A DNA stretch of 64,000 nucleotides from Alphaproteobacteria bacterium (GCA_963694715.1 CAVOEB010000002.1:4305-68304); one strand, 5' to 3'; shown: positions 6,070-45,550, numbered from the stretch's first letter. Program-made: numbers and translations. The notes: a model not told the origin generated them from the sequence alone.

Positions 6070-6921
6070 TCAGGCGCCGAGGACGGCTGCGTGGTGGCGC
6101 AGGTGATTCTCAATGAAACTGCTGATGAAATAATAGCTGTGGTCGTAGCCGTCCTGCAAGCGAAGCTCGAGCTTCTGGCCGCCTGCCTTGCACGCTGCGA
6201 GGAACGCGTCGGGCAGAAGCAGGCTGTCCTTGAACTCGTCGCCCGAGCCCTGATCGACGAGGAAGGTCAGATCGTCGCGCGCCGCGCCGAGTACCAACTC
6301 ACAGGCGTCATAGGCGCGCCACGCGGCCTCGTCCGGGCCCAGATAACCGGCGAACGCCTTTTGCCCGACCTCACAGCGGGTCGGGTTGCAGATCGGCGCA
6401 AAGGCCGAGCAGGAGCGGTAGAGATCGGGATTGCGCAGCGCGGCGACCAGCGCGCCGTGACCACCCATGGAATGGCCGAAGATGCCTTGGCGCTCTTCGT
6501 CGGCCGGAAAGTGCTCGGTGATGTAGGCGGGCAATTCCTGGGTGACGTAGGAGTACATCTGGTAATGGGCCGACCAGGGCGCTTGCGTCGCATCGCAATA
6601 AAACCCCGCGCCGGAGCCGAAATTCCACGCCTCGTCCTCGCCCGCGATGCCGGTGCCACGCGGGCTGGTGTCGGGGGCAACGATCATCAGGCCGAGCTCG
6701 GCCGCGACGCGCTGGGCACCCGCCTTGATCGTGAAGTTCTCCTCGGTGCAGGTCAGCCCGGAGAGGTAAGTGAGCACGGGCACGGGGCCCTGCTCGGCCT
6801 GGGGCGGGTGAAACACGGAAAATCGCATCTCGCCGGCGCAAGCGTCGGAGACGTGGCTGTAAAAGCGGGTCGCGCCGCCGAAATGGCGGTGCTCCTCGCG
6901 CAAAACGGGTGCGGCACTCAT
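6070..6921 (-). CDS. frmB: S-formylglutathione hydrolase (esterase D family)
   Basis: 283-aa ORF with the GHSMGGHGA serine-hydrolase motif and FghA-like N-terminus. It sits immediately downstream of frmA with no gap. Confidence 0.85.
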   Translation of the reverse strand: MSAAPVLREEHRHFGGATRFYSHVSDACAGEMRFSVFHPPQAEQGPVPVLTYLSGLTCTEENFTIKAGAQRVAAELGLMIVAPDTSPRGTGIAGEDEAWNFGSGAGFYCDATQAPWSAHYQMYSYVTQELPAYITEHFPADEERQGIFGHSMGGHGALVAALRNPDLYRSCSAFAPICNPTRCEVGQKAFAGYLGPDEAAWRAYDACELVLGAARDDLTFLVDQGSGDEFKDSLLLPDAFLAACKAGGQKLELRLQDGYDHSYYFISSFIENHLRHHAAVLGA

Positions 6922-11825: not shown

Positions 11826-13763
11826 CTAGAAGTCGAACCCGACGCCGAACAGACCGGCGATGCCCGGGCGGGCGAATCCGTCGGCGATTTCGTAGTCGCG
11901 ATCAAACAGGTTTTCCACCCGGCCCTGCAGGTGCACGCCGTCACCCAAATCGTAGGCTGCCGCAACATCGACGACCGTGTAGCTCGCCATGCGCACGCCG
12001 CCCACATCTACGGTCGAGCCCGTGTGTAGGGTTGCGAAATTGACGGTCAGGAGATCGAGCGGATACCAGGTCAGATTGACCGACGCCTTGTGCTTTGGCC
12101 GGCGCAGCAAATCCTCGTTGATCGACGAATCGAACGCGCGGGTAAAGGTGTAGTCGAGAGCAACCAGAACCTCGGGCAACGGCTGCACCTCGATAAAGGT
12201 TTCGATCCCGCGGGTTTTCGCCTCGTCGACGTTGCGGGTGGTAAACAGACCGGCTCCGGCGTCGAACACGAAGCCATCGATCAACTCGTCGATGTCGTTC
12301 TCGAAATAGGTCGCGCCCAACACCAGGCGTCCTGCAAGCAGCTCCTGCTCGACCCCCGCATCCCAGCCGAAGCTCTTCTCCGGCACGAGATCGGCATTAC
12401 CGAAAAACAGTCCGCTCACGCCGCCGAACAGATCGACCAGCGACGGAGCCTTGAAGCCGGTGCCGACGCTGGCGCGAAATGTCGTCGCCGTCTCGAGATG
12501 GCGATAGCCAAGACTCGCGCCGTAGGTGGTTTCGGATTCGAAGTCCCGGTTGTTGTCGCCGCGCACGCCAAGCGTGCCGAATACGCGCTTCGCAAACTCG
12601 AATTGGTACTCGGCGAAGGCACTATAGGTGCGCGACTGATCGGCAAAATTGAAGAATGCGCCGCCTCCGCTCTCGCCCTGTTCACGGCGGGCCTCAAGCC
12701 CAAGCACCAGCGTGCCGAGTGGGGCAATCTGGAAATCGTTGAGCAGGGCCGCCTCCATGACCGTCCCGTCGAAGATCGAGCGGCTGGTCTCGCCGACCCC
12801 CGATTCGGGGGGATTGTCGTTCTGGAAATCCTGATCGTTGAACCCGCCCGTCAACCGGGCACCCCAGAGATCGTCAACGAGGTCGGCCTTAACGTCGAGC
12901 TGAGCCAGACGGATCGTTCTAGAATCTTCGGCGTTCACATCGTCCGCCCCGAAGCTATCGATTTCGGTGACAGCCCTGACATACTGGCCGTAGAGGTCGA
13001 CCGTCACGCTCTCAGTCGGTGAAAAACCCAAGGCGATAGACGCGACATCGTTGCGGAAGCCGTCGTTCTCGGGGTTGCCCTCATCGTCGGGTGCGATCGA
13101 GACGCCATCGGTCCTGAGCTTCGCCAGATTGAGCTGCATGGTCACCGGCCCGGCATCGCCTCCCAGCCCCCAACGGCCCGAGACGGTCCGAAAGCTTCCG
13201 GCTTCAACGTGAGCGGAACCGGTGATAGGTCCGCTGACCCGTTTGGTGATAACGTTAATCACCCCGCCGATGGCGTCGGAGCCGTACAATACGCTGCGCG
13301 GACCCCGGACGATTTCGATGCGCGCGATATTATCTACCAACAAAGATTGCGGATCGAACACTCCGCCCGATCCAGCCGGATCACCGGCCCGCCGGCCGTT
13401 GACGAGAAAGAGCACGTGATTCGACTCGGTGCCGCGCATGAAGATTGAGGTCGCCGTTCCAGCACCGCCCAACTGGACGAGATTGAGCCCGGGTACGCTT
13501 CGCAAAGCGTCGTTGACGGAGCGGTGCTGACGCTCCTCAATTTCCTCAGCCGTTATAATCGTGATGGAACTCGCGACGCTCGTCGCCGGGGTGGGCAGGC
13601 TGGTCGCGGTAACGACGACGGGAGACGTCGTCCGGGTTGCCGGCTCCGGGTCTGCGGCACCGACGGTCGAGCTGATCGAAAGGGCGGCAAGAAGCGACGC
13701 ACCGGCCGCGACAGCGAGGCGACGAGAGGGCAACGATCGAATAGAACGTGGTGATTCGGGCAT
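11826..13763 (-). CDS. btuB: TonB-dependent outer-membrane receptor, probable cobalamin receptor
   Basis: Start MPESPRS at 13763, preceded by GGAG. Signal peptide, TonB box SPVVVTATS, plug and barrel, C-terminal aromatic (…GFDF). Lies downstream of a cobalamin riboswitch. Confidence 0.8.
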   Translation of the reverse strand: MPESPRSIRSLPSRRLAVAAGASLLAALSISSTVGAADPEPATRTTSPVVVTATSLPTPATSVASSITIITAEEIEERQHRSVNDALRSVPGLNLVQLGGAGTATSIFMRGTESNHVLFLVNGRRAGDPAGSGGVFDPQSLLVDNIARIEIVRGPRSVLYGSDAIGGVINVITKRVSGPITGSAHVEAGSFRTVSGRWGLGGDAGPVTMQLNLAKLRTDGVSIAPDDEGNPENDGFRNDVASIALGFSPTESVTVDLYGQYVRAVTEIDSFGADDVNAEDSRTIRLAQLDVKADLVDDLWGARLTGGFNDQDFQNDNPPESGVGETSRSIFDGTVMEAALLNDFQIAPLGTLVLGLEARREQGESGGGAFFNFADQSRTYSAFAEYQFEFAKRVFGTLGVRGDNNRDFESETTYGASLGYRHLETATTFRASVGTGFKAPSLVDLFGGVSGLFFGNADLVPEKSFGWDAGVEQELLAGRLVLGATYFENDIDELIDGFVFDAGAGLFTTRNVDEAKTRGIETFIEVQPLPEVLVALDYTFTRAFDSSINEDLLRRPKHKASVNLTWYPLDLLTVNFATLHTGSTVDVGGVRMASYTVVDVAAAYDLGDGVHLQGRVENLFDRDYEIADGFARPGIAGLFGVGFDF

Positions 13764-13994
13764 GGCTGACTCCGTTGGGAAACGTGGAATCCGCTGACGC
13801 CGGACGAGAGACGGGGATCGCCCGGGTAACAACCGAGCAAAGCGCGGCACCCGGACGGATGATGAGACGATCGAGCTACGGAACTTGTGAGCGGCCACCC
13901 CGAACATCCCTACACGGCAACAGCAGTTCCCTGCGTCACCACATACGGATTAACCGTCCCGTCGGGAGTCCCCACCCAACGGGTATGCGACGCT

Positions 13995-14170
13995 ATCCGA
14001 CGGCAGGTCTCCTGGCTTGCGGGTCACCGCCCGACACCCGGCCTTCCCAGTTTCCCAGTGGCACACGAGGGGTGCGGACTCGCCGCTGACAGTTGCGGGG
14101 GCAGCCACGTTTCGGTCTCAATCCGACCGCACCGTGTTCCCTTTTCAGCCCGCAGAAGCGGGCACCGTCG
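13995..14170 (-). ncRNA. Cobalamin (AdoCbl) riboswitch in the btuB leader
   Basis: Minus-strand sequence reads GGTGCC…GGGAACACGGTGCGGTCGGATTGAGACCGAAACGTGGCTGCCCCCGCAACTGTCAGCGG…GTGCCACTGGGAAACTGGGAAGGCCGGG…AAGCCAGGAGACCTGCC. The B12-box and the conserved GCCACTG / GGGAAGGC elements of RF00174 are all present. Confidence 0.8.
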
Positions 14171-14188
14171 CTATAAGGACTATAGGCC

Positions 14189-17593: not shown

Positions 17594-18057
17594 GAGATCG
17601 GCTCCCTTCCAGCTTGGGTTCGTTACCCGGCTTGGCCGGGCATTTTCATCTTCGCGCCGGGGTGACCCGACGGTAAATTTACAACGTGGGGCACATGGCC
17701 CCGAACATAATCAATCGAGCGAATATGGCGTCGATCGACCCGGCAGCCTTGATTCAAATCAAGCCCGCTTCGGGGCCCTCGCCCCGTCGGCGAACTCGAC
17801 GAACAGCTTATGACGCCGACAGACAGCCCGCGGAAACCTTCTTTTTCAGTATACAGCAATTCGTCCGCCAACGCGCCTTCCGGACGTCGGCGGTCTATAT
17901 TACTGCGCAGTTCACCAGTCTCTCCCATTCGATCCCCGGCGCCGTTCGCACTCGCTGTTTCCCGCCGCACAGGCTCGTTCCATGCCCGGCCTGTTTCATC
18001 GGAACCGGAACGCAACTTAGCCAAATTGGCCTATTGGTCCAACTATACCGATTATAT

Positions 18058-18576
18058 CTATTGGTTCTGCGTCATATAGCCATAATGCGAACTTACAATG
18101 GACCAATTATGAGTAACCGGTCTAGTTCGTGGCCGGATCCGATTTTTGTTCTCCCGCAAGCTCAACAGGGCTCGATGCAGCTGACCGGTCGAAGCAACGG
18201 GGCACCACCCCCCCCCTCCGTCGACTTCAACCATGAAGTAATAGCTGTCGCGCAGCGCGAGCTGATTGGTTCGATCAGGATCCTGCGCGCCGGTCACGGC
18301 TCCTGCCGCCAGCCAGGTGACGCCGATAATGGTGCCGAGATCGATCCGGGGCATATGGACGGAATTTGGCAGAGTGACGGAACGCTTGCCAACGGCGTCG
18401 CACAGAACCACCCGGCCGCTTGCGCCAAGACAGATAGTGTCGAACGCCGAGCCCGCCACAGCCGAGGACGATGCGCCCAGCGCCAGGACGGCGCCGAGGA
18501 TCACGATCCTTTGAGCGCGCCCTATTGACCGGCCGGCGGCAGGTTGGTGTTCCAGACGTCGAGCGCGATCTGCCAT
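18058..18576 (-). CDS. Hypothetical Cys-containing, possibly secreted protein (uncertain)
   Basis: 172-aa ORF with a hydrophobic N-region. Its 3-prime end lies in the low-GC palindrome-rich zone, so it may be spurious or shorter. Confidence 0.3.
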   Translation of the reverse strand: MADRARRLEHQPAAGRSIGRAQRIVILGAVLALGASSSAVAGSAFDTICLGASGRVVLCDAVGKRSVTLPNSVHMPRIDLGTIIGVTWLAAGAVTGAQDPDRTNQLALRDSYYFMVEVDGGGGWCPVASTGQLHRALLSLRENKNRIRPRTRPVTHNWSIVSSHYGYMTQNQ

Positions 18577-21396: not shown

Positions 21397-21472
21397 TGGC
21401 GTCCCCAGGGGGAGTCGAACCCCCGTTTTCGGCGTGAGAGGCCGACGTCCTAGGCCACTAGACGATGGGGAC
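21397..21472 (-). tRNA. tRNA-Glu (anticodon CUC)
   Basis: Minus-strand sequence GTCCCCATCGTCTAGTGGCCTAGGACGTCGGCCTCTCACGCCGAAAACGGGGGTTCGACTCCCCCTGGGGACGCCA folds as a cloverleaf. Anticodon loop CTCTCAC gives CUC. Close match to E. coli tRNA-Glu. Encoded CCA. Confidence 0.85.
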
Positions 21473-33723: not shown

Positions 33724-35301
33724 TCAGAAATGAAGCGCCTTGGCCTGAATAACATGTGGCAGGGCGCGAACTCTTTTGAGTACCCCATCGGGTACTGGAT
33801 CGTCCACCTGAATGAGGCCGATGGCATCGCCTTTCGGCGCGGCGCGACCAAGATGGAAGGTCGCGATGTTGACGCCCGCGTCGCCGAGGATCTGCCCGAG
33901 AGCACCGATCAGACCTGGTTTGTCCTCGTTGGTCACGTAGAGCATATGGGGCGAAAGCTCGGCCTCGATGGGGATGCCCTTGACCTCGACCAAACGCGGC
34001 CGGGAGCCGGCGAACAGGGTTCCGGCCACGGTTTGCTCCTGGCGCTCGGTGACCACGGTGAGCCGGATCAAGGTCTGGTAGTCGCTTGGCCGGTCGTGAC
34101 GCACCTCGGAAACGTCGATGCTGCGTTCGCGCGCGACCACCGGAGCGTTGACCATGTTGACCGATTCCATCAGCGGGCTTAGCAGGCCTTCGAGGCAGAT
34201 CGCCGTCAGCGGCTTGGTGTTAAGCCCGGCAACATGGCCCTCGTACTCGATCCGTGCCGCGCGCAGGCCGCGTTCGGTCAGCTGGCCGACGAAGCTCCCG
34301 AGCTGCTTGGCGAGCTGAAGATAGGGTTTTAGCCGCGGCGCCTCCTCGGCACTGACCGAAGGCATGTTGAACGCGTTGCTGGCCGCGCCGGTCAGCAGAA
34401 AATCCGAAATCTGCTCGGCGATCTGTCCGGCGACGCTGTCCTGGGCCTCCGCGGTCGCGGCACCGAGATGGGGCGTGGCGACGAATTCGTCCATGCCGAA
34501 CAGGGGGTTGTCGGTGGCAGGCTCGGTTTCGAACACGTCGAATGCGGCGCCGGCGAGATGGCCGCTTTCGAGCGCGGTCTTGAGCGCCGCCTCGTCAACC
34601 AGACCGCCGCGCGCGCAGTTGAGCAGCCGGGCACCGGGCTTCATTCGCCCGATCACCGCAGCATCGATCAGGTGCCGGGTCTGGTCCGTCAGCGGCGTGT
34701 GCAGGGAGACCACGTCGGCGCGCGCCAGAAGCTCGTCAAATTCGACCTTTTCGACGCCTAGCGCCTGGGCGTGCTCCGGAGATAGATAAGGATCGTAGGC
34801 GATGGCCCGCATGCGCAAGCCCTGGGCGAGACGTGCCACGATCGAGCCGATATTACCGCACCCGACGATGCCCAGCACCTTCTGGCACAACTCGACCCCC
34901 ATGAACCGTGACTTTGCCCATTCGCCTGCCTGGGTCGAGCGGTCGGCCTGGGGGATCTGGCGGGCCAGCGCCATCAACATCGCGATAGTGTGCTCGGCCG
35001 TGGTTATCGAATTGCCGTACGGCGTGTTCATCACGACGATGCCGCGCGCGGTGGCCGCCGCGAGATCGACATTGTCGATCCCTATCCCGGCGCGGCCCAC
35101 GACCTTGAGATCGGGGGCGGCGGCCAAGAGCTCGGCGGTGACCTGTGTGCTCGAGCGCACGACCAGTCCGTCGGCACCGGCCAGGGCAGCGGCCAACGCG
35201 CTCGCGTCAAGACCGGGGCGCATCTCGGCCTCGATGCCCCGCTCGGCAAACATCTCGAGACACCGGGGGCTGAGCTTGTCGGAAATAAGAACCTTGGGCA
35301 T
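33724..35301 (-). CDS. serA: D-3-phosphoglycerate dehydrogenase with C-terminal ACT domain
   Basis: 525 aa. NAD-binding GxGxxG (GIVGCGNIG), catalytic R/E/H positions and an ASB/ACT C-terminus. Confidence 0.9.
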   Translation of the reverse strand: MPKVLISDKLSPRCLEMFAERGIEAEMRPGLDASALAAALAGADGLVVRSSTQVTAELLAAAPDLKVVGRAGIGIDNVDLAAATARGIVVMNTPYGNSITTAEHTIAMLMALARQIPQADRSTQAGEWAKSRFMGVELCQKVLGIVGCGNIGSIVARLAQGLRMRAIAYDPYLSPEHAQALGVEKVEFDELLARADVVSLHTPLTDQTRHLIDAAVIGRMKPGARLLNCARGGLVDEAALKTALESGHLAGAAFDVFETEPATDNPLFGMDEFVATPHLGAATAEAQDSVAGQIAEQISDFLLTGAASNAFNMPSVSAEEAPRLKPYLQLAKQLGSFVGQLTERGLRAARIEYEGHVAGLNTKPLTAICLEGLLSPLMESVNMVNAPVVARERSIDVSEVRHDRPSDYQTLIRLTVVTERQEQTVAGTLFAGSRPRLVEVKGIPIEAELSPHMLYVTNEDKPGLIGALGQILGDAGVNIATFHLGRAAPKGDAIGLIQVDDPVPDGVLKRVRALPHVIQAKALHF

Positions 35302-35425
35302 TATGGGACCCCCTCTTCCGCCCGGCTATTACGGCGGCGCCAAGATCGCCAAAAGCGGTTGGCAAGCCGGGATCAGCTAACATAGGATGACACTGTGAGA
35401 AAAGACACACTCGGGGATAAGCTCA

Positions 35426-35809
35426 ATGACGGACGCATCGTCCGGGCCTCTCTACCACAGCCTCGGCGGCTATGACGCGGTCGCATCCGTCGTCAGCGCA
35501 TTCGCCGCCCCCGAGACCGCAGTTTTTTTTCGCGGTCATAGCCGCCAGAACCGCCAACGAATCGTGCAGCGCACGGTCGATTTCTTCTGCGCGCTTGCGG
35601 GCGGCCCGGCGATCCACACGGGCGCGGACATGGTAAGCGCCCGTGATGGGCTGGCGTTAACCGAACGCGACTGGCACGCCACCGGCGCCCACTTGGTTGG
35701 CGCGCTCGACGCTCACGCTGTGGCGGAGACCGAAAAGAACGAATCGCTCGAGCTGATCACGCGCTACAAGGAGGAGATCGTCGCGCCGACGAAGAATGGA
35801 GCCGGATGA
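35426..35809 (+). CDS. Truncated (2/2) hemoglobin family protein
   Basis: PLYHSLGGYDAVASVV…F pattern of the trHb globin fold. 127 aa. Confidence 0.65.
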   Translation: MTDASSGPLYHSLGGYDAVASVVSAFAAPETAVFFRGHSRQNRQRIVQRTVDFFCALAGGPAIHTGADMVSARDGLALTERDWHATGAHLVGALDAHAVAETEKNESLELITRYKEEIVAPTKNGAG

Positions 35810-36597
35810 TTGTCGAACAGATCTGGACCGGAAACGCGTATCGCAATTTCAATTATCTCATCGCCTGCCCCGAGACTGGCGAAGCGCTCGCGATCGACCC
35901 TCTCGATCACCGCAAATGCCTTGCCCGGGCGGCGGACAAGGGCTGGAGCGTCACCCAGGTGCTCAATACGCACGAGCATGGCGACCACACGGGTGGCAAC
36001 GCCGCGATGATCGAGGCCACAGGGGCGACGCTGCTCGCGCATAAGAACGCGAAGGATGCGATCCCCGGGCTCGACTGCGGGCTCGACGCCGGCGATGTAG
36101 TCCGGGTCGGGCGCAGCGTCGAGCTTGAGGTGCTTGACACACCGGGCCACACCATGAGCCATGTCTGCCTGCTCACCCACACGGACGAACCCGCGCTGTT
36201 TTGCGGCGACACCCTGTTCAACGCAGGCGCGGGAAACTGCCACAATGGGGGCCATCCCCACGAGCTCTACGTGAGCTTCGAAACCCAGCTCGCGCGCCTG
36301 CCCGACGCGACGCGGATCTTCCCGGGCCACGATTACATCGCCAACAATTTGCGCTTTACCCTCGACCGGGAGTCCGGTAACGCGCCCGCGGCGGCGCTCT
36401 TGGCCACGATCGAGTCGCAAGACCCGGACGACGCCCTGGTGACGACTCTGGGCCAGGAAAAGGACGTCAACAGCTTCTTCCGGCTCTCCAGTCCGACGAT
36501 TATCACGCGGCTGCGCGAGGCCTTTCCCGACCTGGGTGACGAGCCCGACCCCGAGGCGGTGTTCCTGTGCCTGCGCGAACTGCGCAATTCGTGGTAG
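35806..36597 (+). CDS. gloB: Hydroxyacylglutathione hydrolase (glyoxalase II)
   Basis: THEHGDHTGGN and DTPGHT metal-binding motifs. Its start overlaps the hemoglobin stop (ATGA). Confidence 0.85.
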   Translation: MIVEQIWTGNAYRNFNYLIACPETGEALAIDPLDHRKCLARAADKGWSVTQVLNTHEHGDHTGGNAAMIEATGATLLAHKNAKDAIPGLDCGLDAGDVVRVGRSVELEVLDTPGHTMSHVCLLTHTDEPALFCGDTLFNAGAGNCHNGGHPHELYVSFETQLARLPDATRIFPGHDYIANNLRFTLDRESGNAPAAALLATIESQDPDDALVTTLGQEKDVNSFFRLSSPTIITRLREAFPDLGDEPDPEAVFLCLRELRNSW

Positions 36598-37898
36598 GCG
36601 CGATTCCCAAGACCCGAATTATCCGTTCATTGCGCCGCTCCGCTGTGCTGGGGATCTGCTTCGCGTTCGCCGTGTTGCTGGCGAGCCCGGCCGACGCGGG
36701 CGGCAGCGCCAGCAGCGATCCCATGGTGGCGGAGGCCCGCGCCATTCACGAGCGGGTCTTCACCCTCGATTCCCACGTCGATATTCCGTTCGTCTTCGGC
36801 ACCGATCTGGCCGATCCGGGCGACGACGGCAGTTGGCAGGTCGACCTGCCCAAGATGGCCGCTGGCGGTCTCGATGGCGCGTTCTTCGTGGTCTATGTCG
36901 GCCAGCGGGAACGGACGATCGAGGGCTACGGCCGGGCGACCACCGACGCGCTGGTCAAGTTCGAGGCGATCGGCAGGATGACCGAGGATTACGCCGAGCA
37001 GATCGGCCTTGCCGACACGGCGGCCGAGGCGCGCCGTCTGCACGAAGCCGGACGCCTGGTGGCGCTGATCGGGATCGAGAACGGCTTCGTGATCGGCGAG
37101 GATATAGCGTTGCTCGCACGCTACCGCGAACTCGGCGCGCGCTACATGACGCTGACCCATAACGGCCATAACGCGATCGGCGATTCCGCCCAGCCCGACT
37201 CCGAACTGGGCGACGAAGACGCGGAGCATGGCGGGCTCTCGGAATTCGGCCGCCAGGTGGTCGGCGAAATGAACCGGCTCGGCATCCTGATCGACGTCTC
37301 GCATATCGCGCCCGCGACCCTGATTGATGCCATCGCCGCATCAGCGGCTCCGGTGATCGCGTCGCACTCAAATGCCCGCGCGCTGATCGACCATCCGCGC
37401 AACCTCGACGACGAACAGCTCAGGGCCATCGCCGCGAGCGGCGGCGTGATCCAGACGGTCGCGTATCCGACCCACCTGATCACTTACCCGCCCGAGCAGA
37501 CGGAGGCCGACTGGGCGTTCCACGAGGAGTGGGGCCTGATGGGCCATGACGACTGGCGAGTGCTGGAGCGCGACGAGCCGCACCGGGTCGCCTACGAGGC
37601 GGCCTACGACGCGCTGATGGCCCGGTGGCCCGAGCCTTCGGTGGCCGACCTGGTCGATCACATTGACCATATGGTCGGCGTCGTCGGGGTCGACCATGTG
37701 GGGATCAGTTCAGACTTTGGCGGCGGCGGCGGCGTCGCCGGCTGGCGCCACGCCGGCGAGGGCTTCAACGTTACCCTCGAGCTGGCGCGCCGGGGCTATT
37801 CGGAGGCGGAGATCGCCAAGCTGTGGGGCGGCAACCTGCTGCGCGCCCTCGAAGATGCCGAACGGATCAGTACCGATCTTCAGGAAACGGTGAACTAG
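36567..37898 (+). CDS. Membrane/renal dipeptidase family (peptidase M19), secreted
   Basis: Signal peptide. Motifs [16 protein letters not shown] and DVSHIAPA of M19 dipeptidases. The alternative GTG start at 36591 would reduce the overlap with gloB. Confidence 0.8.
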
Positions 37899-39058
37899 CC
37901 GGCGCGAACCTGCGCCCAGGCCCAGTCGAGCCAAGGAAACAACGCTTCTAGATCTGCCGTTTCGACGGTCGCGCCCGCCCATAGCCGTAAGCCGGGCGGG
38001 GCGTCGCGGTAGGCGGCGATATCGAAGGCCACCCCTTCCGCCTCGAGAAATTTCGCCAAGGACTTGGCGAGGACTGCCTGGTCATTGACCGGGCGGGCGG
38101 CGATTTCCGGGTCGGCGAACCGCAGACAGACCGAGGTGCAGGAGCGCGCCGCTGGATCCGCGGCGAGGAACTCAATCCACCTGGTGCGCGCAACCCAGGT
38201 CTCGATGGCGTCGAGATTGGTCCGGCTGCGCGCGATCAACGCCTCCAGCCCGCCGATCGATTCCGCCCAACCGAGAGCGTCGAGCGCGTCTTCGACGCAC
38301 AGCATCGAAGGCGTATTGATGGTCGCGCCTTCGAAAATTTCCTCGTTGAGCCGTCCGCCCTTGGTCAAACGAAAGAGCTTCGGCAGTGGCCAGGGTGGCG
38401 CATAGCTTTCGAGCCGCTCGACGGCGCGCGGTCCCAGAACCAGCATGCCGAGCCCGGCCTCGCCACCTAGCGCCTTCTGCCAGGAGAAAGTGACGACATC
38501 GAGCGCCGCCCAGGGCAGCGCCATGGCGAACGCGGCCGAAGTCGCATCGCAGATCGTCAACCCCTCACGGTCCGCCGCGATCCAGTCGCCGTCGGGCAAG
38601 GCAACCCCCGAGGTCGTACCGTTCCAGACGAACACCACGTCGCGCGCGAAATCGACCGCGCCCAGATCGGGCAGGCCGCCGTAGGCGGCATCGAAACTGC
38701 GAACGTCGTCGAGCTTCAATTGCTTGATCACGTCGCTCGCCCACCCAGCGCCGAAGCTCTCCCACACCAGAAGGTCGACGCCACGCGGCCCCAGCAACGA
38801 CCACAGCGCCATTTCGACCGCCCCCGTGTCCGAAGCCGGCACGATGGCGATGCGCCAGCCCTCGGGCACCCCGAGTAGCGCCCCGGTGCGCTCGATCAGC
38901 GCCTTGAGGCGCGCCTTGCCGGCGGCGGACCGATGGGAGCGCCCAAGCAGGGCGCTGTTCAGGGTCTCGGGCGTCCAGCCGGGGCGCTTGGCACAGGGGC
39001 CCGACGAGAAACACGGGTTGGCCGGGCGGACGGTGGGCGTTTCGATAGATGGGTTCAT
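37895..39058 (-). CDS. serC: Phosphoserine aminotransferase (long alpha-type SerC)
   Basis: Start [28 protein letters not shown] at 39058. PLP-lysine region [12 protein letters not shown]. Confidence 0.85.
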
Positions 39059-39086
39059 GGCGCTGGCCGCAAGCCGCTCCCGCCGC

Positions 39087-39866
39087 TCAGAGAGTAATTT
39101 CGCCGTCGAGGTAGAGCGCGACACGCCCCTCGATGCGCACCCGTGCGCCTTGAAGCTCGCAGGTGAGCACGCCACCACGCGCGGAAATCTGGCGCGCCTC
39201 CAACCGGGTCTTGCCCAAGCGCTCCGCCCAGTAGGGCGTCAGCAGGCAGTGGGCCGAACCGGTCACCGGGTCTTCGGCGATGCCCGCCCGGGGCGCGAAG
39301 AAGCGCGAGACGAAGTCGACGCTCTGGCCGGGCGCGGTGGCGATCACGCCGCGCCGGTCGAGGCGCGTAAGCGCCGCCATGTCGGGTGCCAGCGCCGCCA
39401 CGTCGGCTTCGGAGGCGAACACGGCTAGGTAGTCCATCTCCGCCAGTACCACATCAGGCTCGGTGCCCAGGCCGGCGACGAGGTCGGCCGGGGCAGCGCA
39501 CGGCTCAGGCGGCAGGGCGGGGAAATCCATCGCCAGAGAATCGCCAGCGCGGCTGACCGTGAGCGGGCCGCTAGCGCTCGAAAAGGTCACGCTCTCGCGG
39601 GTAGGGTCGAGAATCGTGAGCACCACATGGCCGGACGCGAGAGTGGCGTGGCCGCACAACTCTACCTCGATTGCCGGGGTAAACCAGCGCAACGCGAAGC
39701 CGTCGCCTTCGGGTACAAAAAACGCCGTCTCGGAAAGATTGTTCTCGGCCGCGATCGCCTGCAGCACGGCGTCGTCGAGCCAGCTCTCAAGCGGGCAAAC
39801 CGCCGCCGGATTGCCCGCGAAAACCCGGCTCGTAAAGGCGTCGACCTGGAACAGACGGAGCTTCAT
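39087..39866 (-). CDS. PhzF-family (phenazine-biosynthesis-like) isomerase
   Basis: Start [23 protein letters not shown] at 39866. DAP-epimerase-like fold with conserved E and the C-terminal pattern. Confidence 0.75.
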
Positions 39867-40005
39867 GCCCTTTTGTCTCACCCGCATTCCACCGACGCAA
39901 CCCCGGAGGCGAGGGGACGGTTGAGAACAATGTTTTTCCCCGCCGAAACGAACGCTATCATCGACAAAAAACAGGGGCGGCCTAGCCGCCTGCGGGAGAT
40001 GTGGT

Positions 40006-41382
40006 GTGACGAGGACAATCCGACAACGCGCCGGCCGGCTGGGCGGGGCGGTGGTGCTGGCAGCCATGGTCGTGGGCGTGGCAGCGCCCGCGAACGCGGA
40101 TTTCGCCGCCGGGTGGAGCGCAGCTCGCAGCGACGATCTTGAAACCGCGCACGACGAATGGCTGGTGCTCGCCAACCGGAGCGACGTCGACGTTCAGTAC
40201 AACATGGCCGTGCTCCACGAGCAGGGCGTCGACGGCGAGCCCGACCTGGTCATGGCCCGCGAGTGGTATCGTCGTGCCGCTGATCGGGGCTTCGCCCCCG
40301 CAGCCTTCCGGCTGGCCCAGTAATACAAATTGGGGCTGGACGGCGAAGCCGGCCTGTCGCGTATCATCGAATACACGGTCCGCGCCGCCCAGCGCGGTCA
40401 CGCCAAGGCCCAATTTGCGCTGGCGATCGCCTAAGAGCATGGCCAAGGCGTCCTGCAGGACTTTCACCGAAGCCGTCGATATTTGTACCGCCTGGCTGCC
40501 GGATAGGGCCTGATGGAAGCGCAGTACAACCTCGCGCACCTCTACGAATCAGGGCTCGGCGTGCCGAAAGACGTCGGTCAGGCGATCGGCTGGTATAGCG
40601 ACGCCGCCGAGCAAGGCTGTACCGATGCTCAGAATAACCTCGGCTATCTCTATGAGCATGGCGTCGGGGTCAAGCGTGATCCCTCGATCGCGGTGCGCTG
40701 GTACTGCCAGGCCGCCGAGCTGGGCCATGCTCTCGCCCAGGCCAATCTCGGTATCCTCTACAACTACGGCCAGGGCGTGAACCACGACTATCTGGCGGCC
40801 GCGCACTGGTATCACGAGGCGGCGGCCCAGGGCGAACCGCTCGCGCAGAACAATCTGGGCCTGATGTACGCCAACGGGCTAGGCGTCGAGAAAGACTTCG
40901 TCGAGTCCTACAAACGGTTCCATCTTGCCGCCCAGGGCGACGACGCCAAGGTGGCCAGCACCGCCGAAGACAACCGCCAGCGGCTGGCCGAAAACATCGG
41001 CCCCGAAACGCTCGCCTGGGCCCAGACCATTGCAGCCAACGCCGTGGGCCGCCAGATCGTCGAGCTGGCCGCCATCGCGCCGGCAGGCGGCGTCGAGCTG
41101 ATGCGCACCGCCGATTTCGGCCAACTCGTGGTAACCGTGCAGCGCCGCCTCGACCAGTTGGACTTCTTCAAAGGCGCGATCGACGGCTTGCTCGGGCCGC
41201 TGACCACCGAGGCCGTCATGGCCTATCAGAAGGCCCAGGACATGGAAGCGACCGGCGAGATCGACGAGACGCTCCTCGCCCGGCTGTTGGCCGAGCGCGA
41301 ACAGGGCCCTCGCCCGATTACTAGACTAAATATAGGGTTTTCTCCTGGTTCGGGGTCCAAAACAGGGCTGGATGTGCGGTGA
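40006..41382 (+). pseudogene. Sel1-repeat protein with C-terminal peptidoglycan-binding domain, interrupted by three in-frame stop codons
   Basis: Track ORFs 40006..40323 (signal peptide + Sel1) and 40513..41382 (Sel1 repeats + PG_binding_1-like LQRRLDQLDFFKGAIDGLLGPLTTEAVMAYQ) share a frame. The 190 nt between them continue the 36-aa Sel1 periodicity but contain TAA (40321), TAA (about 40436) and TAG (about 40504), plus an apparent compensated local frame slip near 40465-40500. Confidence 0.55.
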
Positions 41383-41488
41383 ATTTTAGGCCTATAGTGG
41401 CGTCTTATTGGGAATGCTCGGCTCGAACCTAATCAGGCGCGCGGGCATACGGGAGAACAACCAGCCAAGTTCAGAAAGTGAGCATAGA

Positions 41489-42907
41489 ATGACAGATCAA
41501 GCTGCGAGGAACGTCAGCCTCGAGCAGATGGACACGGACACTACGCTTCATGCGTATACCGCGCTCGACGAGCACCTGAAGAACGGACCCGAACGCATCA
41601 TCGCGAGCGGCAACGGAATTTACATCACCGATACCCAGGGCCGTACCTACATCGACTCCATGGCGTCGTTGTTCTGCGTCAACGTCGGCTATGGCCGTTC
41701 AGAGGTCGCCGACGCGATCTCCGAGCAGGCCCACAAGATGGCCTACTTCCATACCTTCTGCGGCAACGCCAACGAGCCCCAGATTTTGCTCGCCGACCGG
41801 CTGCTCAACGGCCTCCTGCCGCAGAACATGAGCAAGATCCTGTTTGCAAGTTCGGGCTCCGAAGCCAACGACGCGAACGTCAAGCTGGCCTGGAACTACC
41901 AGATTTTCCGGGGCAAGCCCAAGAAGCGCAAGATCATCGCCCGCGAGGGGGGCTATCATGGCGTAACCGTCATGGGGGCAAGCCTATCGGGCCTGCCGAT
42001 CATGCATCAGGCTTTTGGCCTGCCGCTGGATTGCGTGATCCATACGGATAAGCCGCATTACTTCTGGGGCGGCAATCCCGGCGAGTCGGAGTTGGATTAT
42101 TCCAAGCGCCTGGCCAAGAACCTCGACGAGCTGATCCAACGCGAAGATCCCGAGACCGTCTGTGCCTTCATCGCCGAGCCGGTGATGGGCGCGGCCGCTG
42201 CGGTCTGCCCTCCGGAAGGCTACTTCCAGGAGATCCAGAAGGTTCTCGACAAGCACGACGTGCTGTTCATCGCCGACGAGGTAATCACCGGCTTCGGTCG
42301 TCTGGGCGCCTGGTTTGGTTCCGAGCTCTACGGTATTGAACCCGATCTGATGACGCTCTCGAAGGGCATCACCAGCGCCTACATGCCGAGCTCGGCGTCG
42401 GTCGTCTCCAAGAAGGTGTGGGACGTGATCAGCGCGACTCATCCCGAGATGCCGATGTTCGCATCGGGATCGACTGCGGCGGGCCATCCGATCGCCTGCG
42501 CAGCCGCACTTGCCTGCCTCGACATCTATGAGAACGAAAATCTCATCAACAACGCCAAGGTGGTCGGCAAATACTTCAAGGACCAGCTGAACGAGCGCAT
42601 CGGCGATCACCCGCTGATGGGCGAAGTTCGGGGCGAGGGCCTGATGCTCGCAGTCGAGCTGGTGGCCGACAAGGACACCAAGGAAGTGCTCAATCTCGAG
42701 TGGGATTGCTCGCACCGCCTGTTTGATCTCTGCCTTGAGGAGATGCTGATCACGCGCGGCTTCTTCGGGCACAACTCGTCGTCGTTCGCGCCGCCGTTGA
42801 CCATCACCACGAGCGAGGTCGACGACATCATCGGTCGCTTCGAGAAAGGCCTGAACAAGCTGGCCGACGAGCTCGTTGCCGATGGCCGCTGGAAGCCGAA
42901 AAATTAG
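41489..42907 (+). CDS. Class III (omega) PLP aminotransferase, paralog 1
   Basis: Start MTDQAARNVSLEQMD. Fold-type I class III aminotransferase with PLP-lysine in the TLSKGITSAY region. About 60% identical to the paralog at 44144. Confidence 0.8.
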   Translation: MTDQAARNVSLEQMDTDTTLHAYTALDEHLKNGPERIIASGNGIYITDTQGRTYIDSMASLFCVNVGYGRSEVADAISEQAHKMAYFHTFCGNANEPQILLADRLLNGLLPQNMSKILFASSGSEANDANVKLAWNYQIFRGKPKKRKIIAREGGYHGVTVMGASLSGLPIMHQAFGLPLDCVIHTDKPHYFWGGNPGESELDYSKRLAKNLDELIQREDPETVCAFIAEPVMGAAAAVCPPEGYFQEIQKVLDKHDVLFIADEVITGFGRLGAWFGSELYGIEPDLMTLSKGITSAYMPSSASVVSKKVWDVISATHPEMPMFASGSTAAGHPIACAAALACLDIYENENLINNAKVVGKYFKDQLNERIGDHPLMGEVRGEGLMLAVELVADKDTKEVLNLEWDCSHRLFDLCLEEMLITRGFFGHNSSSFAPPLTITTSEVDDIIGRFEKGLNKLADELVADGRWKPKN

Positions 42908-42945
42908 AAACGCTTAAAGCCGCTCCGCCCATTCGGGCGGGAGGG

Positions 42946-42990
42946 TCGAAAATCAAGGCCGGTCCGGAAGCCCCGGGCCGGCTTATTTTT
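42946..42990. terminator. Hairpin plus T-run between convergent aminotransferase and folD
   Basis: GGCCGGTCCGGAAGCCCCGGGCCGGC followed by TTATTTTTT. Confidence 0.45.
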
Positions 42991-42999
42991 TAGCCGATG

Positions 43000-43923
43000 T
43001 CAGGGACGCTGCGCGGTGCCGGGAAGGACGGCGCCGGTCTGACCGAATTCGGATTCGTAATGGGCCCGCTGTCGCTGAGCGGCAATCACCGTGTTGCGCA
43101 TCAGGATTGATACCGTGACGGGGCCAACGCCGCCCGGCACGGGCGTGATCCATCCGGCCACCTCGCGGCAGGACTCGTAATCCACGTCGCCCACGGTGAT
43201 CAAGCGGCCATCTTCGTCCTCGATCCGGTTGATCCCGATATCGATTACGACAGCGCCCGGCTTGATCATCTCGGCCGTTATCATGCGCGGCTTGCCGACG
43301 GCGACGAACAGCGCGTCCGCCTGGCGTGAATGTACGGCGAGATTTCGTGTCATATGGTGACAGACGGTGACCGTAGCGCCTTCCGCCATGAGCAGAAAGG
43401 CAATCGGCTTGCCGACGATCTCGGAGTGCCCGACGATGACCGCGTCCAGTCCCTCCAACGCAACCCCCGTACGCCGGAGCATCTCGACCGACGCGGCGGC
43501 CGTACAAGGGGCGAGCTCAATCTCGTTGTAGACGATGTTACCGATCGAGGCTGGGTGCATGCCTTCGACGTCTTTAAGCGGATGCACCGCGCTTTGCAGC
43601 TCCTTGATGCTGAGCGGCTTGGGCACCGGACGCTGGACGATGATCCCCGTGACCCGGGGATCGACATTCAAGGTCGCAATTGCCGCTAGGATTTCACCGC
43701 GGGTCACGTCGGCCGGAAAATGACGTTCCTCGAAGGCGATACCCGCCGTCTCGGCGCGCCGGCGCTGATTGCGGACATAGACTTCGACCGGCGCCGTATC
43801 GCCGATGGTGATCGAGACAAGCCGCGATGGCCAGCCGGTAGAGACAAGGGCCTGGGCCGCGTCGCGCACCTGACCGAGGATTTCCTCGGATACGGCCTTA
43901 CCGTCAATGTCTTTGTGATGCAT
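43000..43923 (-). CDS. folD: Bifunctional methylene-THF dehydrogenase / methenyl-THF cyclohydrolase
   Basis: Start MHHKDIDGKAVSEEI at 43923. Motifs GKPIAFLL and PVPGGVGPVTVSIL. Confidence 0.9.
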   Translation of the reverse strand: MHHKDIDGKAVSEEILGQVRDAAQALVSTGWPSRLVSITIGDTAPVEVYVRNQRRRAETAGIAFEERHFPADVTRGEILAAIATLNVDPRVTGIIVQRPVPKPLSIKELQSAVHPLKDVEGMHPASIGNIVYNEIELAPCTAAASVEMLRRTGVALEGLDAVIVGHSEIVGKPIAFLLMAEGATVTVCHHMTRNLAVHSRQADALFVAVGKPRMITAEMIKPGAVVIDIGINRIEDEDGRLITVGDVDYESCREVAGWITPVPGGVGPVTVSILMRNTVIAAQRQRAHYESEFGQTGAVLPGTAQRP

Positions 43924-44143
43924 GCGTTCTCGTAGGGAATACAGTTTCTGCCCCGTCCGGGCGTACACACCATAAGTAATGGCGCCAACGAACTACCACT
44001 GTTTTAAATTCCATGGTAGAGACGATGGTACTGGTACCGCGCGCTAATTCACGCGATAGTCAGGGTAAGAGCTCCACTTTTTTCTACTGTCATGGCAGCG
44101 AAAGGTGATGGGCACGATTATTGCATATTTGGAGACCAAAACC

Positions 44144-45550
44144 ATGACGGCTCATATTGGACGCAACCTATCGTTGGAGGAGATGGACAAGCAGAGCCAC
44201 CTCCATCCTTATTCCTCTCTCGCCGACAATCTAGAGACCGGCCCGAAGGTGTGGAGCGGCGCCAAGGGCATCATGCTCACGGACACACAGGGCAACGAGT
44301 TCATCGACGGTATGGCCGGGTTGTGGTGTGTCAATATCGGCTACAGCCGCGATGAAATTGCCGATGCTGTCGCGGCCCAGATGAAGCAGATGAGCTATTA
44401 CCACAGCTTCGCGACCGCCTCGAACGAACCGGTCATTCGTCTTGCCGATCGCCTTCTGGGCCTATTGCCGGACAACATGAGCAAGATATTCTTCGGCAAT
44501 ACAGGATCGGATGCGAACGACACGAACGTTAAGTTCGTCTGGTATTACAGCAACCTGCGCGGCAAGCCCGAAAAGAAGAAGATCATTTCGCGCGAGCGCG
44601 GCTATCACGGCGTGACCATCGCCGCCTCCAGCCTCACCGGTCAGCCGTTGCTGCACAACGCGTTCGACCTGCCAATCAACAACATCATCCATACCCTGCC
44701 CAACCATTATTACCGCCAGGCCGAACCGGGTATGAGCGAGTTGGAGTTTTCCAAGCATCTCGCCGCCGAGCTCGACGCCTTGATCGAGCGCGAGGGCCCC
44801 GAGACCGTGGCCGCCTTCATCGCCGAGCCCGTGATGGGCGCGGGCGGAGTGATCACGCCGCCGGAGGGCTACTTCCCGGAAATCCAAAAAGTGCTCGATA
44901 AGCACGATGTGCTGATGATCGCCGACGAAGTCATCTGCGGCTTTGGGCGGTTGGGAAAATGGTTCGGCACCTACGCCTACGACATCAAGCCCGATATAAT
45001 AACCATGGCGAAGGGCCTGACCAGCGCATACATCCCGATGTCCGCGTCGGCCATATCCCAGCGGGTGTGGGACGTGCTCGTCGAAGGTTCGCCCAAGATT
45101 GGGCCGTTTGGCCACGGCTATACCTACGGCGCCCACCCGGTTGCCGCAGTCGCCGCGATGGCGAACCTCGACGTCATCGAACGCGAGAATCTGGTCGACA
45201 ACTCGGACAAGGTCGGCGGCTATATGCAGGAACGGCTCCGGGCCCGCCTGGCGGATCATCCGTTGGTCGGTGAGATCCGCGGCCGCGCCCTGATTGCTGC
45301 GGTCGAGCTGGTCAAGAACAAGGCGACCAAGGAGGAATTCGACCTCGGTCTCAAGGTCGGCCCCCAGATGATCGCCGCCTGCATGGACGAAGGCCTCGTT
45401 ATCCGCTCGCTGATGGGGACGAATTCCACGGCCTTTTCGCCGCCGCTCGTCGTCAACGAATCGGATATCGACGAAGTCCTGGACCGCTACAGCCGCGCCC
45501 TCGACAAGGTGGCCGGCGACCTCAAGAAGGACGGTCACTGGAACGGCTGA
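44144..45550 (+). CDS. Class III (omega) PLP aminotransferase, paralog 2
   Basis: Start MTAHIGRNLSLEEMD, chosen by alignment to paralog 1. PLP-lysine in TMAKGLTSAY. Confidence 0.8.
   Translation: MTAHIGRNLSLEEMDKQSHLHPYSSLADNLETGPKVWSGAKGIMLTDTQGNEFIDGMAGLWCVNIGYSRDEIADAVAAQMKQMSYYHSFATASNEPVIRLADRLLGLLPDNMSKIFFGNTGSDANDTNVKFVWYYSNLRGKPEKKKIISRERGYHGVTIAASSLTGQPLLHNAFDLPINNIIHTLPNHYYRQAEPGMSELEFSKHLAAELDALIEREGPETVAAFIAEPVMGAGGVITPPEGYFPEIQKVLDKHDVLMIADEVICGFGRLGKWFGTYAYDIKPDIITMAKGLTSAYIPMSASAISQRVWDVLVEGSPKIGPFGHGYTYGAHPVAAVAAMANLDVIERENLVDNSDKVGGYMQERLRARLADHPLVGEIRGRALIAAVELVKNKATKEEFDLGLKVGPQMIAACMDEGLVIRSLMGTNSTAFSPPLVVNESDIDEVLDRYSRALDKVAGDLKKDGHWNG

Follow-up and report, generated by a model that had tools for sequence, protein, structure and literature searches.

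A Sel1-repeat, peptidoglycan-binding protein gene of an alphaproteobacterium is very probably a young pseudogene fixed in the sampled population

Introduction

A stretch of 64,000 nucleotides from an alphaproteobacterium (GCA_963694715.1, CAVOEB010000002.1:4305-68304), referred to below as the window, carries on its forward strand, at positions 40006-41382, a locus of unusual structure. Its conceptual translation in a single frame comprises a signal-peptide-like N-terminus, a series of Sel1 repeats, a linker and a PG_binding_1 domain, and this frame is interrupted by several nonsense codons that lie close together. The question raised by this organization is whether the locus represents one gene that has recently been inactivated, two working genes separated by a spacer, a gene whose stops are artefacts or are read through, or a segment that is subject to programmed hypermutation, and, if the gene was inactivated, why the inactivating lesions lie so close to each other.

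Organization of the locus

The translated frame contains exactly three stops (TAA, TAA and TAG; Table 1), in agreement with the initial reading of the locus, made from the sequence alone, which had described N-terminal and C-terminal open reading frames (ORFs) in the same frame with these three codons between them. A mechanical ORF map yields three ORFs in this common frame, of 105 aa (40006-40323), 34 aa (40330-40434) and 289 aa (40513-41382), the first of which is annotated by public gene callers as a separate 'Sel1' gene in related contigs. The start codon of the locus is GTG, located 6 nt after a GGGAGA motif, and the leader of the 105-aa ORF is first basic and then hydrophobic, ending in AAPANA followed by DF; a signal peptide is absent from the C-terminal ORF itself. 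The promoter and terminator scan gave nothing informative for the Sel1 gene itself.

The Sel1 repeats were recognized by Pfam (PF08238) in six stretches with an E-value of 1.4e-53 and a score of 177.9 bits, against a gathering cut-off of 30.7, while seven repeats of 36 residues can be counted by eye in the alignment with the homologues. The PG_binding_1 domain (PF01471; E=4e-13, 49.7 bits, gathering cut-off 23) occupies residues 372-427 of the conceptual translation.

Table 1. Features of the Sel1/PG_binding_1 locus, with positions counted from the first nucleotide of the window.
Feature	Position	Strand	Evidence and remarks
Shine-Dalgarno-like GGGAGA	39994-39999	+	Read from the sequence; kept in L001 and L007; putative function
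N-terminal remnant ORF, 105 aa: leader, Sel1 repeat 1, beginning of repeat 2, stop 1	40006-40323	+	ORF map, Pfam
Sec-type signal-peptide-like leader	40006-40098	+	Predicted from sequence features only
Nonsense codon 1, TAA; ancestral codon TAT (Tyr), as in L001	40321-40323	+	In all 16 related contigs
Nonsense codon 2, TAA; ancestral codon TAT (Tyr)	40432-40434	+	Tyr in six of seven aligned homologues
Compensated frame slip: +1 at ~40461 and +2 (AT) at 40479-40480	40461-40480	+	Gaps in L001, two alignments
G-to-T change beside the +2 insertion: Sel1-repeat Trp (TGG) to Leu (TTG)	40484	+	Alignment
Nonsense codon 3, TAG; ancestral codon CAG (Gln)	40504-40506	+	Alignment, contigs
C-terminal remnant: Sel1 repeats 4-7, linker, PG_binding_1; open from ATG 40513	40513-41301	+	ORF map, Pfam
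Part coding for PG_binding_1 (PF01471)	41119-41286	+	Pfam, E=4e-13
Loss of the ancestral stop: CAG in the window, TAG in L007 and L001	41302-41304	+	Alignment
Read-through tail: 25 codons of formerly intergenic DNA and new stop TGA (41380-41382)	41305-41382	+	G+C ~0.51-0.59

Comparison with an intact relative and with distant homologues

A scan of the GTDB species genomes provided one close relative, an alphaproteobacterial MAG (L001; contig of 1.74 Mb), which is collinear with positions 35021-44005 of the window at ~84% nucleotide identity and with unchanged gene order. Its copy of the gene is one uninterrupted ORF of 431 aa, with the same start and leader as in the window, and at the three stop sites it reads TAT (Tyr), TAT (Tyr) and CAG (Gln). 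Compared with L001, the window has one extra base at ~40461, which is either a C or, if the present GAT was first GAC, one T of a TTT run, and two extra bases at 40479-40480; as a consequence of the two insertions about six codons are misread and one codon is gained (DFTEAVDWY becoming DFHRSRRYLY), while imposing the L001 frame on the slip gives DFTEAVDLY against the DFTEAVDWY of L001. A further difference of several bases was found at 40327-30, where L001 has CGCC and the window AAAT. The sequence-only reading had placed the stops at positions where Tyr or Gln would be expected and had noticed a short compensated frame slip, and both observations are borne out by this alignment.

Six distant full-length homologues (P0003, P0006, P0012, P0020, P0043 and P0048; 421-447 aa, 36-48% identity) could be aligned from end to end with the repaired window protein, show the same architecture, and carry Tyr, Gln and hydrophobic residues at the sites hit by the lesions. 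Since L001 and these six homologues are intact and aligned over their length, the single intact gene is, as judged from this comparison, the ancestral state, and the lesions arose in the lineage of the window.

Both flanks of the interrupted segment had been described as intact, which is correct insofar as they are open, but they also carry damage of their own. Derived substitutions are found at family-conserved positions (W303R, G385D, P54V, R233C and G43D), and W303R, G385D, P54V and G43D fall well outside the stop cluster. In addition, the stop codon that ends the gene in L001 is changed from TAG to CAG in the window, resulting in a tail of 26 aa that extends up to the next TGA; this stop loss constitutes a sixth lesion that had previously been overlooked. 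When residue changes were polarised with the outgroups, 29 were derived in the window and 16 in L001 (p=0.07).

Distribution of the lesions in environmental contigs

Sixteen contigs that cover the locus were fetched from different ENA, JGI and Logan metagenome assemblies, and in each of the 16 every lesion covered is present. Eleven of them (L008-L018) agree with the window at 100% identity, each showing no more than one mismatch along 1.3-6.9 kb, and the other five (L007 and L019-L022) represent haplotypes with 1-12 SNPs in the Sel1 locus, L007 being the most divergent (0.6% over 5.1 kb). Database records list the exact 289-aa product for 17 contigs, and the 105-aa product and its G59 variant for others. 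Because 16 contigs that were assembled independently of each other carry the same lesions, sequencing error is not the source of the stops, in line with the initial reading, which had taken the kind of changes involved to argue against homopolymer error, and the pseudogene is fixed across the sampled population, which is strikingly homogeneous and widely sampled. The names of the metagenome records suggest that this population is marine. The 11 contigs L008-L018, from separate metagenome assemblies, show this very high homogeneity within window positions 36006-44382.

The only lesion specific to the window-type allele is the stop loss at 41302. The L007 haplotype retains the TAG, and its C-terminal ORF measures 263 aa as compared to 289 aa for the window allele; the stop loss in one and the TAG in the other therefore account for the presence in public databases of two 'different' C-terminal proteins that stem from one and the same pseudogene. 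No allele carrying part of the lesion set was found among the 16 contigs, the five lesions being common to all alleles that cover them. Exact-pattern and protein-guided scans of JGI metagenome contigs for intermediate relatives returned nothing closer than 60% identity, and a search of 5.8 billion proteins returned only the same species and homologues of at most 50% identity.

Past and present selection

Measured against L001, the N-terminal part of the gene has a dN/dS of 0.18, the stop-bearing middle one of 0.16 and the C-terminal part one of 0.14, with dS ~0.6, as compared to 0.08-0.22 for six neighbouring genes (encoding peptidase M19, SerC, a PhzF-family protein, a class-III aminotransferase, FolD and a metallo-beta-lactamase-fold protein). 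The middle segment, with dS 0.68 and dN 0.106, is close to its flanks (dS 0.58-0.60, dN 0.082-0.106). Since all parts have a dN/dS like that of the neighbours, the whole gene, including the middle, was subject to normal purifying selection during almost the entire period that followed the split from L001.

Within the species the picture is different. The pseudogene contains four synonymous and nine non-synonymous SNPs, against 13 synonymous and two non-synonymous SNPs in four flanking genes (SerC, PhzF-family, aminotransferase and FolD), a difference that is significant in spite of the small counts (Fisher p=0.0056), and the nine include a change from Tyr to His at a family-invariant Tyr (40594, in L022) as well as the stop loss. 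For the C-terminal ORF by itself the counts, also small, are 0 synonymous to 6 non-synonymous (five missense changes and the stop loss at 41302; p=0.0005 compared to the neighbours), and for the N-terminal 105-aa ORF, which has only few SNPs, they are 2 to 1. Selection has thus shifted, and these polymorphisms indicate that purifying selection is now relaxed and that the gene is drifting along its whole length. The proposal of a very recent pseudogenisation is well supported by the intact syntenic gene of L001, by the low dN/dS, and by the contrasting SNP counts of the gene and its neighbours.

A very probable young pseudogene

Taken together, the locus is very probably a young pseudogene of a secreted Sel1-repeat, peptidoglycan-binding protein that has become fixed in the sampled population. 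The ancestor would have been a periplasmic protein of ~431 aa in which a signal peptide preceded seven Sel1-like repeats and PG_binding_1 formed the C-terminal domain; the repeats may have served as a protein-binding scaffold and the C-terminal domain as a tether to the cell wall. The gene was knocked out in repeats 2-3 by three nonsense substitutions (TAT to TAA twice, and CAG to TAG) and a pair of +1 and +2 insertions, after which drift spread damaging missense changes over the gene, with the window allele also losing its original stop. At most, the 105-aa leader fragment, for which export is predicted, may still reach the periplasm. The 289-aa downstream ORF does not appear to be a working gene, because it has neither an export signal nor a sign of purifying selection, and all function of the ancestral protein was presumably lost. 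Some observations weigh against this reading: the SNPs of the 105-aa ORF are too few to demonstrate a lack of function, the SNP counts are small in general, and only one intact relative is available. As far as can be seen from a coarse ORF map, the 64-kb window contains no other obviously broken gene, its genes being dense and intact.

The locus resembles the pseudogenes described for Salmonella (PMC2916853) in that it is disrupted relative to an intact syntenic orthologue, contains premature stops and insertions of less than 10 bp, shows relaxed selection, and has remnant ORFs that are called as genes. It differs from them in having five lesions that are tightly clustered and, unlike strain-specific pseudogenes, it is fixed and shows hardly any variation among a large number of environmental samples, and has not yet been deleted.

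Clustering of the disabling lesions

The five disabling lesions, located in repeats 2-3, span only 186 of the 1296 bp of the gene, and four of them lie inside 75 bp (40432-40506). When three nonsense changes, weighted by the possible sites, and two indels were placed at random in the repaired gene, a span of 186 bp was reproduced in 0.24% of 200,000 trials (p=0.0024, for a clustering that was noticed post hoc). Only ~4% of random substitutions in the gene would be nonsense, and, apart from the three stops, the middle segment is almost free of extra substitutions. The +1 and +2 insertions, 18 nt apart, restore the frame, and the gene could still have been under selection at the time of the second one. 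The packing of the lesions is not what plain neutral decay would predict; chance, a single error-prone synthesis event, and selection for earlier termination are possible causes of the clustering. That the lesions did not come from slow neutral decay, but from a burst of error-prone synthesis or from selection to silence a harmful truncated periplasmic product, is a proposition that we consider unlikely. If true, a free-living marine bacterium would have preserved, in this fixed and widespread pseudogene, the natural trace of mutations that arose as a cluster or of adaptive silencing by multiple hits. The clustering is a small curiosity, and would tell something about mutation clusters or about selection on pseudogene products only if intermediate genomes allowed the lesions to be ordered.

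A single localised event could have produced most of the lesions at once, through a short tract of error-prone repair or of translesion synthesis, or through template switching at a quasi-palindrome. It would account for the concentration within 186 bp of the five lesions together with the adjacent Trp-to-Leu change and the CGCC/AAAT difference, and for the lack of a matching excess of ordinary substitutions in the segment, which is not what a long neutral build-up would leave; moreover, a perfect palindrome of 12 nt (GTCCTGCAGGAC, 40450-40461) directly adjoins the +1 insertion. On the other hand, no mutational signature is common to the changes, which comprise two T>A, one C>T and one G>T substitution besides the insertions of C or T and of AT; the clustering was noticed post hoc among many genes; and no intermediate alleles point to a joint origin. 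Several of the changes touch inverted repeats, namely the palindrome of 12 nt where the +1 base was gained, a repeat of 11 nt at stop 2 and one of 9 nt at the CGCC-to-AAAT change, but the test for templating by inverted repeats was not significant, 31% of the positions of this G+C-rich gene being located in inverted repeats of at least 9 nt; the repeat of 11 nt located at the +2 insertion is itself ancestral, and, should the Asp codon have been GAC originally, the palindrome could be older than the insertion. Templating by a quasi-palindrome or inverted repeat was rejected for these reasons and for the ambiguity of one of the alignments, and a single event of any of these kinds is judged unlikely.

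Stepwise positive selection would provide another route, either with a harmful truncated product favouring stops further and further upstream or with the gene being switched off, restored and switched off again under fluctuating selection. The +1/+2 pair, with its spacing of 18 nt, resembles an intragenic suppressor, and nonsense changes are over-represented in a segment that has almost no other excess. It has been argued that young bacterial pseudogenes can be deleterious, and a young pseudogene with five hits is uncommon, if not without precedent, since 346 of 378 curated Salmonella pseudogenes have a single inactivating mutation (Kuo and Ochman 2010, PMC2916853). However, in about one case out of three two random indels will cancel each other's frame, the five lesions are common to all alleles and hence no order can be read from them, and the counts are small. 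We consider such a course of events improbable.

Alternative readings of the locus

A separate proposal is that of gene fission, in which the 105-aa ORF and the 289-aa ORF starting at ATG 40513 would both be functioning genes, separated by 190 bp of decaying spacer. Both ORFs are indeed open and are called separately in every public assembly, the ATG is found 7 nt after the third stop with a weak purine stretch (GGA/AGGG) upstream, and the disabling lesions are limited to the spacer, as would be expected from selection on both halves. But a PG_binding_1 protein needs export, for which the C-terminal ORF has no signal peptide; this ORF has acquired exclusively non-synonymous SNPs, including the stop loss and the change of the invariant Tyr to His, in contrast to the predominantly synonymous SNPs of its neighbours, and W303R and G385D affect conserved positions within it. 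The supposed spacer has no excess divergence, its dS and dN being those of its flanks. Finally, the sequence-only reading had considered that orthologues might show two separate genes with an intergenic spacer, and in L001 there is one gene. Fission is therefore regarded as very improbable, and the young pseudogene remains the preferred reading.

Even less credence can be given to a sequencing or assembly artefact, or to a recoding or read-through of the stops that would restore the full-length protein. Each stop is one base away from the ancestral sense codon, and TGA is not among them, but identical lesions are present in 16 contigs that come from separate samples, were built with different assemblers and were taken from different repositories. 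TAA and TAG terminate 28 of the 58 other likely genes in the window (TAG 19 and TAA 9), including the adjacent SerC and aminotransferase genes, the sole tRNA in the window is a normal tRNA-Glu, the part downstream of the stops is without purifying selection and has lost its own stop, and a comparison with Rfam gave no match at the locus, either at the gathering thresholds or at E<=1. An altered genetic code or a suppressor was likewise rejected, the stop usage being normal and no unusual tRNA being encoded in the window.

The last proposal, that of programmed local hypermutation, for instance of the target of a diversity-generating retroelement or a similar cassette, has in its favour that the lesions are clustered inside a repeat protein, but its probability is practically nil: only self matches were obtained when positions 40280-40540 (blastn) and the repaired protein (tblastn) were searched against the whole 64-kb window for a template copy or paralogue, the segment is no more diverged from L001 than its flanks, both in a sliding divergence plot and in the dN and dS of each segment, it is invariant across the 16 contigs except for four SNPs, which is the opposite of hypervariable, and the changes are not restricted to adenines. 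The clustering concerns the disabling lesions alone, and the locally hypermutated segment that had been proposed as the alternative to recent pseudogenisation is not supported.

Ancestral function and related proteins

Sel1-like repeat (SLR) proteins are located in the cell envelope, where they serve as adaptors that bind other proteins. The best PDB match of the intact orthologue is EsiB/c5321 of E. coli (4BWR; E=5e-103), and several unnamed Sel1 proteins were also matched. With EsiB/c5321, H. pylori HcpC (1OUV), IltA/PA3978, ExoR, MotX and AlgK the ancestral protein shares the type of repeat, and it is itself predicted to have been exported; unlike these characterised SLR proteins, it has a C-terminal PG_binding_1 domain, and it is inactivated in the present genome. 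In P. aeruginosa, IltA/PA3978 binds and inhibits the lytic transglycosylase MltF (PMC10746161). None of the NCBIfam equivalog cut-offs was reached by the intact orthologue (in bits, against the cut-off: MerG 158/350, MotX 65/330, ExoR 62/450 and AlgK 58/700).

A closer resemblance is found with alphaproteobacterial proteins that combine Sel1 repeats and PG_binding_1 (P0003 and others), which have the same length class, signal-peptide-like N-terminus and domain order. In contrast to the window copy, these homologues are intact; they are functionally uncharacterised and have no specific name in the sources. By analogy, the ancestral protein may have been a periplasmic adaptor that was tethered to the peptidoglycan via its C-terminal domain. 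The neighbouring genes (SerC, PhzF-family, aminotransferase and FolD) gave no functional clue.

Other features of the window

The intergenic region at 41383-41488, upstream of the class-III aminotransferase gene, contains blocks that are almost identical to L001 (~6380-6490) in surroundings that are ~16% diverged. These conserved blocks read ATTTT.GGCCTATAGTGGCG.CTT.TTGGGAATG and CCAAAACA; they had no Rfam match, and could be a promoter or a binding site for a regulator.

At 39976-39990, on the reverse strand, a G+C-rich hairpin (GGCGGCTAGGCCGCC) followed by CCTGTTTTTT is terminator-like and largely conserved in L001. The PhzF-family gene and the Sel1 pseudogene are divergent, and the hairpin sits in the intergenic region that separates them, a short distance upstream of the ribosome-binding site of the pseudogene.

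Within the Sel1 locus, the palindrome GTCCTGCAGGAC at 40450-40461 includes a PstI site and ends with the base that is the putative +1 insertion. Its counterpart in L001 is a 10-nt palindrome, TCTTGCAAGA, with two symmetric differences that are both synonymous.

Further away from the locus, a cobalamin riboswitch (Rfam RF00174, 116.7 bits) was found on the reverse strand at 13985-14184, upstream of a 693-aa ORF (11826-13907, reverse strand). The only tRNA in the window is a tRNA-Glu with anticodon CTC (21397-21472, reverse strand). Approximately 930 bp at 17594-18521 are without a convincing ORF and gave no Rfam match at the gathering thresholds, and the G+C content drops to 0.49-0.52 around 17900-18200, as compared to ~0.65 elsewhere.

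Implications

For annotation, the two or three remaining ORFs (of 105 and 34 aa, and of either 289 or 263 aa), which are called as separate 'Sel1' genes, should be merged and flagged as one pseudogene; beyond annotation the significance of the finding is small. As to the biology of the organism, a widespread and nearly clonal alphaproteobacterium would be living without a Sel1 adaptor tethered to its cell wall, while its sister lineage retains one.
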